IMG/VR virus record: IMGVR_UViG_2541047931_000002
Coordinates: 1 to 31,884 of that record
Direction: 5' to 3' (one strand)
DNA length: 31,884 nucleotides
Source of the DNA: a virus
Taxonomy: Duplodnaviria > Heunggongvirae > Uroviricota > Caudoviricetes
In this document: one piece after another, positions 26,202 to 26,381 of the stretch
Position numbering within the stretch: position 1 is the first letter of the stretch
Layout of the letters: each line of letters starts with the position of its first letter
Position numbers and translations under genes: made by a program
The notes under the pieces: model-generated
Told to the model about the DNA's origin: nothing
The model's input: the letters and a program-made list of their open reading frames with translations, nothing else
Databases searched by the model: none

Positions 26202-26381
26202 TTACCGCCAGTATTCAATGCACATGACCGCCATGAACACCCCTAAAAAAAGGGCATTTATATATCCAAATATTAATATCAAAACATCAACTTTTTCCAT
26301 ATACCTTGCTGTGAAGATGATGGGCATACATGATACGAACAACCAGAACGCAACAAACAAAAACTGCAATGCGTTTTTCAT
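26202..26381 (-). CDS. Small membrane protein (59 aa, two predicted TM helices)
   Basis: Frame of ORF 26202..26420; start placed at ATG 26381 with strong AGGAGG RBS: MKNALQFLFVAFWLFVSCMPIIFTARYMEKVDVLILIFGYINALFLGVFMAVMCIEYWR; AT-rich context. Confidence 0.5.
   Translation of the reverse strand: MKNALQFLFVAFWLFVSCMPIIFTARYMEKVDVLILIFGYINALFLGVFMAVMCIEYWR

Follow-up and report, generated by a model that had tools for sequence, protein, structure and literature searches.

A small gene in an AT-rich island upstream of hok/sok

The 31,884-nucleotide stretch of DNA analysed in this study (IMG/VR virus record IMGVR_UViG_2541047931_000002, hereafter called the window) is a lambda-like (Qin/Rac-type) prophage of Escherichia coli. 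Between its replication region and an intact hok/sok locus lies an open reading frame (ORF) of 59 codons, 26381..26202 on the minus strand, that is very probably a genuine protein-coding gene for a small membrane protein. Its ATG start codon occupies positions 26381-26379 and its TAA stop codon positions 26204-26202, and the product is MKNALQFLFVAFWLFVSCMPIIFTARYMEKVDVLILIFGYINALFLGVFMAVMCIEYWR. The original prediction, which was made from the letters of the window, delimited this ORF exactly (26202-26381) but overlooked that it is read from the minus strand. The gene and the features that overlap or immediately surround it are listed below.

26202..26381, minus strand: coding sequence (CDS), stop included, of the 59-amino-acid small membrane protein (subfamily A), with a frame that is intact in 112 of 114 flank-anchored loci and shared by a 41%-identical paralogue of the same length
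26386..26391, minus strand: Shine-Dalgarno sequence AGGAGG, separated from the ATG by AATA (4 nucleotides)
26120..26520, no strand assigned: AT-rich island holding the 59-codon gene, 35-40% GC
26245..26251, minus strand: homopolymer of seven T nucleotides (T7) within the CDS, from which most frameshifted database protein variants originate
26218..26475, plus strand: antisense 'shadow' ORF of 85 amino acids, which contains two stops in subfamily B and is not a gene

The ribosome binding site of the gene had been ranked among the best in the window with a spacer of 5 nucleotides. The ranking holds, given that the 59-codon ORF has one of the three pairings of AGGAGG with a start codon 3-9 nucleotides away that occur on both strands of the whole window, while the spacer is corrected to 4 nucleotides. 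An A/G single-nucleotide polymorphism (SNP) at position 26388 yields AGGGGG, which is the commoner Shine-Dalgarno allele in subfamily A. The GC fraction is 0.345-0.405 across positions 26100-26600 and 0.50-0.60 to either side, and the neighbouring genes were identified by profile. We therefore agree with the earlier placement of the ORF in an AT-rich island between the replication region and hok.

Evidence that the ORF is a gene

Among 2000 dinucleotide-preserving shuffles of positions 26120-26520, 16% hold an ATG-initiated ORF of at least 59 amino acids. ORF length by itself is therefore not significant, and the case for coding must be made by comparison. For subfamily A, we anchored the sample on a 34-mer from the non-coding upstream flank, such that the selection of loci is blind to the state of the ORF itself, and obtained 114 usable viral contigs. 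Only two of these carry a disrupted copy, and the 59-amino-acid frame is intact in the remaining 112.

A second subfamily, B (P0037/P0043: MRKILMYLCISIWIVISCVPIILTSEYLTEASIMALMFGHANALCIGVFISIIYIECWR), which had escaped the original prediction, was found by an exhaustive HMMER search of 1.84 billion representative sequences. All 23 subfamily B loci are intact. Proteins of both subfamilies are 59 amino acids long and align without gaps from Met1 to Arg59 at 41% identity. The earlier proposal of a strongly initiated coding ORF is thus upheld by a relative with the same frame, length, start and stop. Nucleotide identity between A and B is 59% overall, with values of 58, 73 and 47% at codon positions 1, 2 and 3, respectively. 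By the Nei-Gojobori method, the two differ with pN 0.33 and pS 0.72, corresponding to dN 0.44 and dS ~2.3 (saturated), for a dN/dS of ~0.19. When all six frames are compared, the sense frame is the sole one that is open in both A and B. In simulations that placed 72 random substitutions on the A sequence, 2.7% of the outcomes were free of stops, 1% kept at least 24 identical residues, and 0.05% did both. Judged from these alignments, conservation of the family is beyond chance, with P ~0.0005 for the A/B pattern under random divergence.

Polymorphisms within each subfamily are also unevenly distributed. Common (non-singleton) SNP sites in subfamily A number 5 in the 177 nucleotides of the ORF versus 16 in 139 nucleotides upstream (Fisher p=0.003). 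A 1300-bp alignment of subfamily B loci contains 58 variable sites, only 4 of which are located within -79..+230 relative to the ATG (p=0.0013). The five common SNPs in the A ORF are all nonsynonymous, although conservative (V16A, V31I, I37M, Y40H and M53T), and are accompanied by one synonymous singleton; the four ORF polymorphisms in B are likewise all nonsynonymous. Given that nearly all ORF polymorphisms alter amino acids, recent purifying selection is not demonstrated by pN/pS, but the counts are too small to speak against it.

We considered whether the sense frame might have arisen by chance in AT-rich intergenic DNA, or whether the opposite-strand 85-amino-acid ORF might instead be the real gene. 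Such readings could draw on the shuffling result, on the fact that PGAP makes no call in the RefSeq genomes among the matches listed, on the annotation of the antisense ORF in two phage records, and on pN/pS values within the subfamilies that are not below 1. However, these readings are scarcely credible given that the sense frame is open at equal length in A and B despite only 59% nucleotide identity, that codon positions are conserved in the order 2>1>3, that the joint probability under random divergence is only 0.0005, and that both subfamilies preserve a Shine-Dalgarno sequence of the same kind (AGGAGG or AGGGGG in A, AGGGA in B). The antisense frame itself is closed by its two stops in B.

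Two other gene models were rejected. A 72-amino-acid form extended to an upstream GTG has no usable Shine-Dalgarno sequence, and in B the region of the extension is not in frame and contains a stop. The possibility that the ORF is a remnant of a larger gene was dismissed on the basis of the start and stop common to both subfamilies.

Subfamily B resides between ttcA and uspF

Subfamily B genes are located between ttcA, which is followed by an integrase fragment, and uspF/ompN, and this interval corresponds to the Rac-type attachment region. The features annotated by RefSeq in the ttcA-uspF interval are all pseudogenes (an integrase, a DUF1627 gene and a metal ABC permease, the last of which is sit-like and frameshifted), and the B gene is the sole intact frame in the interval (L204-L211, L255). 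In strain L210, an intact ABC-transporter operon adjoins the gene. Carriers of B include ST131 and avian pathogenic E. coli (APEC) isolates. The B sequence has a GC content of 32%.

Approximately 55 nucleotides past the B stop codon, a 66-nucleotide fragment matches the 3' portion of the hok CDS (window positions 25875-25810) with 80% identity. This fragment, together with a conserved stretch of ~45 nucleotides that follows the stop codon, indicates that the ORF already preceded hok in the common ancestor of the two subfamilies. An extended -10 element, TGaTATAAT (TGaCATAAT in other strains), is located 75-80 nucleotides upstream of the B ATG, and the only variable site outside the CDS within -79..+230 is the first base of this -10 hexamer. 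Its coordinates in two loci are as follows.

L255 (E. coli JJ1887), 2019-2027: B extended -10 element
L204, ~5919-5927: B extended -10 element

Predicted membrane topology and a lipobox-like motif

The Kyte-Doolittle profile of the protein exhibits two hydrophobic blocks separated by a dip at approximately residues 25-32 (GRAVY 1.31), and AlphaFold2, supplied with a 9-sequence alignment, models helices at residues 2-26 and 32-58 with a mean pLDDT of 72. The two analyses agree with the earlier description of two hydrophobic helices joined by a short polar turn. The corresponding segments of the gene, including a lipobox-like motif that had previously been overlooked (S17-C18), are as follows.

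26307..26372, minus strand: hydrophobic segment 1 (residues 4-25), forming transmembrane (TM) helix 1 or a lipoprotein signal peptide
26328..26342, minus strand: lipobox-like L14-F15-V/A16-S17-C18, with S17 and C18 invariant in A and B
26286..26306, minus strand: polar turn (residues 26-32, RYMEKVD), predicted to be periplasmic
26217..26285, minus strand: hydrophobic segment 2 (residues 33-55), with a G39xxxA43xxxG47xxxA/S51 face and N42

The C-terminus after segment 2 is E56-x-W58-R59 (EYWR in A). Positively charged residues are found near the N-terminus in both subfamilies (MK in A, MRK in B), and the loop is neutral in A and acidic in B. Applying the positive-inside rule to these sequences leads to an N-in/C-in arrangement with a 7-residue periplasmic turn, and thus the product is predicted to be an inner-membrane protein whose two ends face the cytoplasm. 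Residues invariant between A and B are W13, S17, C18, P20, I21, I22, T24, L36, F38, G39, N42, A43, L44, E56, W58 and R59. The small-residue face of helix 2 (G39xxxA43xxxG47xxxA/S51), combined with Asn42, suggests tight helix-helix packing.

Conservation in the N-terminal half clusters at and just past the lipobox, whereas the h-region (residues 4-12) is variable, which is the pattern expected of a signal peptide. The lipoprotein rule of the PS00013/PS51257 type calls for {DERK}6-[LIVMFWSTAG]2-[LIVMFYSTAGCQ]-[AGS]-C, with the cysteine at position 15-35 and K/R among the first 7 residues. Residues 8-18 conform to this rule at C18 in both alleles of A and in B, where the motif can be written L/I-F/V-V/A/I-S-C. 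Against the background of the window, the rule selects 10 of 1125 start/ORF combinations, of which two belong to the 59-codon ORF and one is the true Rz1. The latter is an o-spanin lipoprotein of 60 amino acids that is proline-rich and is located at 19302 on the minus strand, inside the Rz frame (19058-19537).

The product may therefore be a two-helix hairpin or a 42-residue lipopeptide with one TM helix, and we hold the latter form to be possible, albeit the less favoured of the two. In this lipoprotein scheme, for which our confidence is tentative, cleavage by LspA would remove residues 1-17 to yield an N-acyl-diacylglyceryl-Cys18 peptide of 42 residues that the C-terminal helix would hold in the inner membrane. 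The scheme gains from the agreement of both subfamilies with a rule that selects only ~0.6% of ORF/start combinations as background in the window and also picks the true Rz1 o-spanin, from the invariance of S17, C18 and P20-I-I-x-T24 next to the variable h-region, and from the presence of K/R within the first three residues. The phage exclusion proteins Cor (phi80/N15) and Llp (T5) are also small lipoproteins, and, like Rz1, they share an N-terminal lipobox and a conserved cysteine with the 59-amino-acid protein, with no homology to it. Conversely, hydrophobic residues continue for seven positions after the cysteine, as would be more typical of a continuous TM helix (AlphaFold2 helix 2-26), and a Pfam LPAM match is absent. 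The scheme is compatible with the function that we favour below.

Some resemblances to phage lysis and exclusion proteins were also considered. The T1 gp11 u-spanin likewise combines an N-terminal lipobox with a C-terminal TM helix. However, only ~14 residues separate Cys18 from helix 2, which is far too short to span the periplasm, and the gene is outside the lysis cassette. T4 Imm and class II holins such as S21 are similarly small phage proteins with two TM helices in an N-in/C-in arrangement, whereas the 59-amino-acid protein has no Pfam holin or Imm match and lacks a holin-type charged C-terminal tail. A class II holin function was excluded because this tail is missing, because the lysis genes are ~6 kb away, and because another gene of the prophage already encodes a dedicated class II holin. 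The lysis cassette (~19000-20800) has its own holin, endolysin and Rz/Rz1.

Searches for relatives and for known families

No family in Pfam, NCBIfam, PHROGs or PADLOC was assigned to the window protein. Even at E<=10, there was no Pfam match to Hok/Gef (PF01848), GhoT, holin or other toxin families. A match to DUF4212 (E=0.032) was obtained with subfamily B members only and was judged to be compositional. A profile search of the PDB returned no relatives, and a Foldseek comparison of the AlphaFold2 hairpin with viral structures returned generic helical hairpins only (E>=0.79), which is uninformative. The earlier statement that the ORF belongs to no recognised family is thus accurate for curated libraries, and we can add that it is a member of an unnamed family with two subfamilies.

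Distant relatives were sought with word-indexed searches, with HMMER against the 1.84 billion representatives, in genome, viral and metagenome contigs, and by tblastn against phages and plasmids, and only subfamilies A and B emerged. Protein databases may under-represent the gene given that gene callers skip the 59-amino-acid ORF. Beyond E. coli and Shigella, no relatives were found other than in one Klebsiella oxytoca plasmid record. To judge from these searches, the 59-codon gene founds an unnamed family that is limited to E. coli/Shigella. The family is undescribed, is outside curated libraries and is unannotated in RefSeq, while small prophage membrane proteins as a kind are well known.

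One apparent match with 53% identity, from E. coli ECMA0423 (L005), was rejected as a divergent homologue. This sequence (3940-4180) is a decayed copy in which the Shine-Dalgarno sequence has become TCGGAG and the frame is broken by frameshifts and stops, and it adjoins an intact hok gene. Thus, hok can outlast the 59-codon gene. Frameshifted variants that arise at the T7 run (…INALFFRGVHGGHVH) may be either sequencing errors or true slippage variants.

Distribution and public annotation

A 301-nucleotide query for the A locus matched 1570 of 5426 complete E. coli genomes (29%), and the B locus was found in 1045 of 5426 (19%), where the figures for A and B may overlap. In the RefSeq records among the matches listed, no annotated feature underlies either the A or the B match, such that a gene of this prevalence is unannotated there. 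GenBank submitters sometimes label it as a 'hypothetical protein' or 'putative membrane protein', often in the 72-amino-acid GTG-extended form. Three sequenced phages carry the A gene, and the two records inspected both give the antisense shadow ORF as the CDS (ON470619.1, 22474-22731, labelled 'hornerin'; PV340562.1, 10959-11210, labelled 'hypothetical protein'). This omission or assignment to the wrong strand in public annotation was not noticed in the original prediction.

The gene is absent from E. coli K-12, whose Qin prophage matches the window only over the hokD coding segment (25694-25957), and this absence probably explains why K-12-centred surveys of small proteins have omitted it. 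A ribosome profiling (Ribo-seq) preprint on strain CFT073 reports unannotated small membrane proteins, and the portion of that preprint accessible to us establishes no link to the 59-codon gene.

Linkage to hok/sok and independence from it

The downstream neighbour of the gene and the segment that separates the two are as follows.

25720..26118, minus strand: intact hok/sok locus, with the hok CDS at 25788-25943 and mok extending to 26000
26157..26201, minus strand: block of ~45 nucleotides after the stop codon, in which A/B identity is above that of the CDS; its equivalent in L204 is 6181-6225

The hok gene is recognized by Pfam HOK_GEF (E=3e-23), and the Rfam sok model scores 110 bits at 25938-26112. 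Long-range fbi/tac complementarity is evident between 25723-25750 and 26089-26115, which places the 5' end of the hok mRNA near 26115, and the sequence TAGAAT is located at 26125-26120. The stop codon of the 59-codon ORF is thus ~85 nucleotides upstream of the hok transcription start and 258 nucleotides upstream of the hok ATG, and no terminator-like site was found between the ORF stop and that start. Over positions 25600-27100 on both strands, the only terminator-like site is the hok terminator (25719-25702). The conserved block at 26157-26201 is upstream of the hok promoter and is a candidate regulatory site or antisense promoter.

In about one quarter of A loci, the hok leader is split from its CDS exactly at the hok ATG and the 59-codon ORF is intact. 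Considering also the B loci, sequence comparison indicates that the ORF is independent of hok, in that it is intact where hok is split or deleted.

Candidate functions

Our best explanation overall, which we hold with moderate confidence, is that the gene is a prophage accessory gene of the moron type that encodes an inner-membrane envelope protein tolerated by, or useful to, the lysogen. A specifically protective role is a more tentative proposal, and other membrane-modulator roles take up the remainder. The protein would insert into the inner membrane in an N-in/C-in arrangement, or would be lipid-anchored at C18, and the small-residue face of helix 2 could mediate self-association or pairing with a membrane protein of the host or a phage. 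The outcome might be exclusion of, or immunity to, incoming phage DNA or a membrane-targeting toxin, or the modulation of a host membrane protein. The membrane-toxin and superinfection-exclusion roles suggested in the original prediction are both hypotheses. Consistent with an accessory function, the gene is carried by lambda-like prophages immediately ahead of hok/sok, and its composition is distinct, as is characteristic of morons (35-40% GC compared with 50-60% in the flanks). An accessory and tolerated gene would also fit its presence in 1570 (A) and 1045 (B) of 5426 genomes and in sequenced phages, the survival of B as the lone intact frame among pseudogenes, and the intact ORF at loci with a split or deleted hok.

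The best functional analogy for a protective role is provided by HK97 gp15, a small inner-membrane moron protein that blocks phage genome entry and thereby confers superinfection exclusion (PMC3594210). By this analogy, both would be small inner-membrane proteins that a lambda-like phage encodes on an insert with a foreign base composition, with a benefit for the host (PMC3594210). However, gp15 is related to YebO, whereas the 59-amino-acid protein has no Pfam YebO match. Moreover, the gp15 gene belongs to the tail operon and has a promoter and a terminator of its own, while the 59-codon gene is located in a nin-like region upstream of hok and neither element was detected for it.

Several observations weigh against the accessory-gene explanation or parts of it. 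No sigma-70 promoter or terminator was found at the A copy in a scan of positions 25600-27100, and thus two of the three classical hallmarks of morons are not demonstrated for that copy, although the scan carries little weight because it also misses the hok and sok promoters, which must exist. Many copies in the databases are frameshifted at the T7 run, and pN/pS within the subfamilies, for which counts are small, gives no support for recent purifying selection. No defence-system model in PADLOC matches the 59-amino-acid protein, and literature searches returned no match to the protein and no expression or phenotype data. With regard to lipid anchoring, the hydrophobic run that goes on past C18 (CMPIIFTA) is unusual for lipoproteins. 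Finally, a small hydrophobic protein encoded beside hok could equally be toxic.

This last possibility is the principal rival. A small membrane-damaging toxin, either type I-like or a two-helix protein resembling GhoT or OrtT, would form an inner-membrane oligomer that dissipates the proton-motive force and would act in post-segregational killing or abortive infection, with or alongside hok. The size of the protein, its two hydrophobic helices, and its glycine-zipper-like conserved face with Asn42 suit such a function, as do an AT-rich mobile context, a location beside hok (directly ahead of hok/sok in A, adjoining a hok remnant in B), and the tail of frameshifted or truncated alleles held by databases. 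Similarities to known toxins are likewise easy to list. GhoT and OrtT (57 aa) are of similar size, with two hydrophobic helices and no soluble domain, and Hok/Gef proteins are small membrane peptides whose gene shares the strand, the mobile module and the ancestral linkage of the 59-codon gene.

Despite these parallels, we consider the toxin hypothesis unlikely, and a protective or accessory role more likely than that of a lethal toxin. GhoT is encoded in an operon with its antitoxin GhoS, whereas no antitoxin gene adjoins the 59-codon ORF in either A or B, and no match to a toxin family was obtained from Pfam at the permissive threshold given above. Hok has one TM helix plus a periplasmic domain containing cysteine and is controlled through mok, sok, fbi and tac, while the 59-amino-acid protein has two hydrophobic segments and its ORF yielded no HOK_GEF match, antisense RNA or fold-back elements. 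Over the ORF, there was no antisense small RNA, terminator or Rfam match, although these are weak negative tests, and no significant 5' structure that would sequester the strong Shine-Dalgarno sequence was evident (z = -0.68). Furthermore, the gene is disrupted in only 2 of 114 loci sampled without bias, and B is intact, with a promoter-like element, within a dead prophage remnant in ~19% of E. coli.

A more elaborate proposal, which we regard as rather improbable, is that the product belongs to a previously unrecognised family of lipid-anchored micro-proteins, with a lipobox at Cys18, a single C-terminal TM helix and 42 residues in the mature form, that originated in lambda-like phages as a partner of the hok/sok module, was domesticated at the ttcA-uspF scar in the strains with subfamily B, and serves as a new kind of envelope immunity or exclusion factor. 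Its targets in such a case would be membrane-targeting toxins, perhaps with Hok-type peptides among them, or the entry of phage genomes.

A cis-acting function for the ORF, wherein translation itself would tune read-through transcription or folding of the hok mRNA, is very improbable. The arrangement would permit it, given the absence of a terminator between the stop at 26202 and the hok start at ~26115, the ancestral order of ORF and hok, and the conserved 45-nucleotide block past the stop codon. However, the amino acid sequence is constrained (dN/dS ~0.19, with conserved motifs), and the ORF is intact where hok is a 66-nucleotide fragment (B) or has been severed from its leader (about one quarter of A). 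A leader role is therefore unlikely, because the protein sequence is constrained and the gene survives the loss of hok.

Regardless of its precise function, this is a conserved and well-initiated small membrane protein with obvious residues for mutation (C18, P20, N42 and the G/A zipper), and its ancestral linkage to hok/sok offers a handle on the work that such prophage modules do in lysogens. If the protein is protective or lipidated, it would represent a new family among the few phage-encoded envelope micro-proteins that shape sensitivity to phages or toxins, and the lineages concerned would include pathogenic E. coli such as ST131 and APEC, as well as Shigella. No surprising mechanism has been shown so far, and the appeal for specialists is in the prevalence, conservation, possible lipidation and hok linkage of the gene.

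Other features of the prophage region

The remaining genes in the region, in minus-strand order, are as follows.

Start of the order, minus strand: frameshifted cro-like gene
28175-28600, minus strand: YdaT-family gene
27033-28109, minus strand: replisome-organiser-like gene, 358 amino acids
26756-26992, minus strand: 78-amino-acid DUF977 fusion, annotated as a pseudogene in RefSeq
After hok, minus strand: phrog_1212 gene, DUF968 gene, RusA gene and Q antiterminator gene

The 78-amino-acid ORF at 26756-26992 consists of the N-terminus of DUF977 (residues 1-41) joined to the C-terminus of another gene. Relative to prophages like that of NZ_AP045169, this fusion was made by a deletion of ~1155 bp, and prophages of the NZ_AP045169 type keep four extra small genes at this location, including a DUF7167 gene.

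Rearrangements on the hok side are evident in two other prophages. PhiR42_1 (L258, 3294-7156) keeps the 59-codon ORF and the hok leader, which are followed by an insertion sequence (IS) element and flxA-ydfV-relB-relE. When K-12 Qin (L254, 5025-5289) is compared with the window, the break falls at window positions 25942-25957. On the basis of these two comparisons, the relBE-hokD operon of K-12 appears to have arisen when an intact hok/sok locus like that of the window was split by an insertion that separated its leader from the hok CDS.

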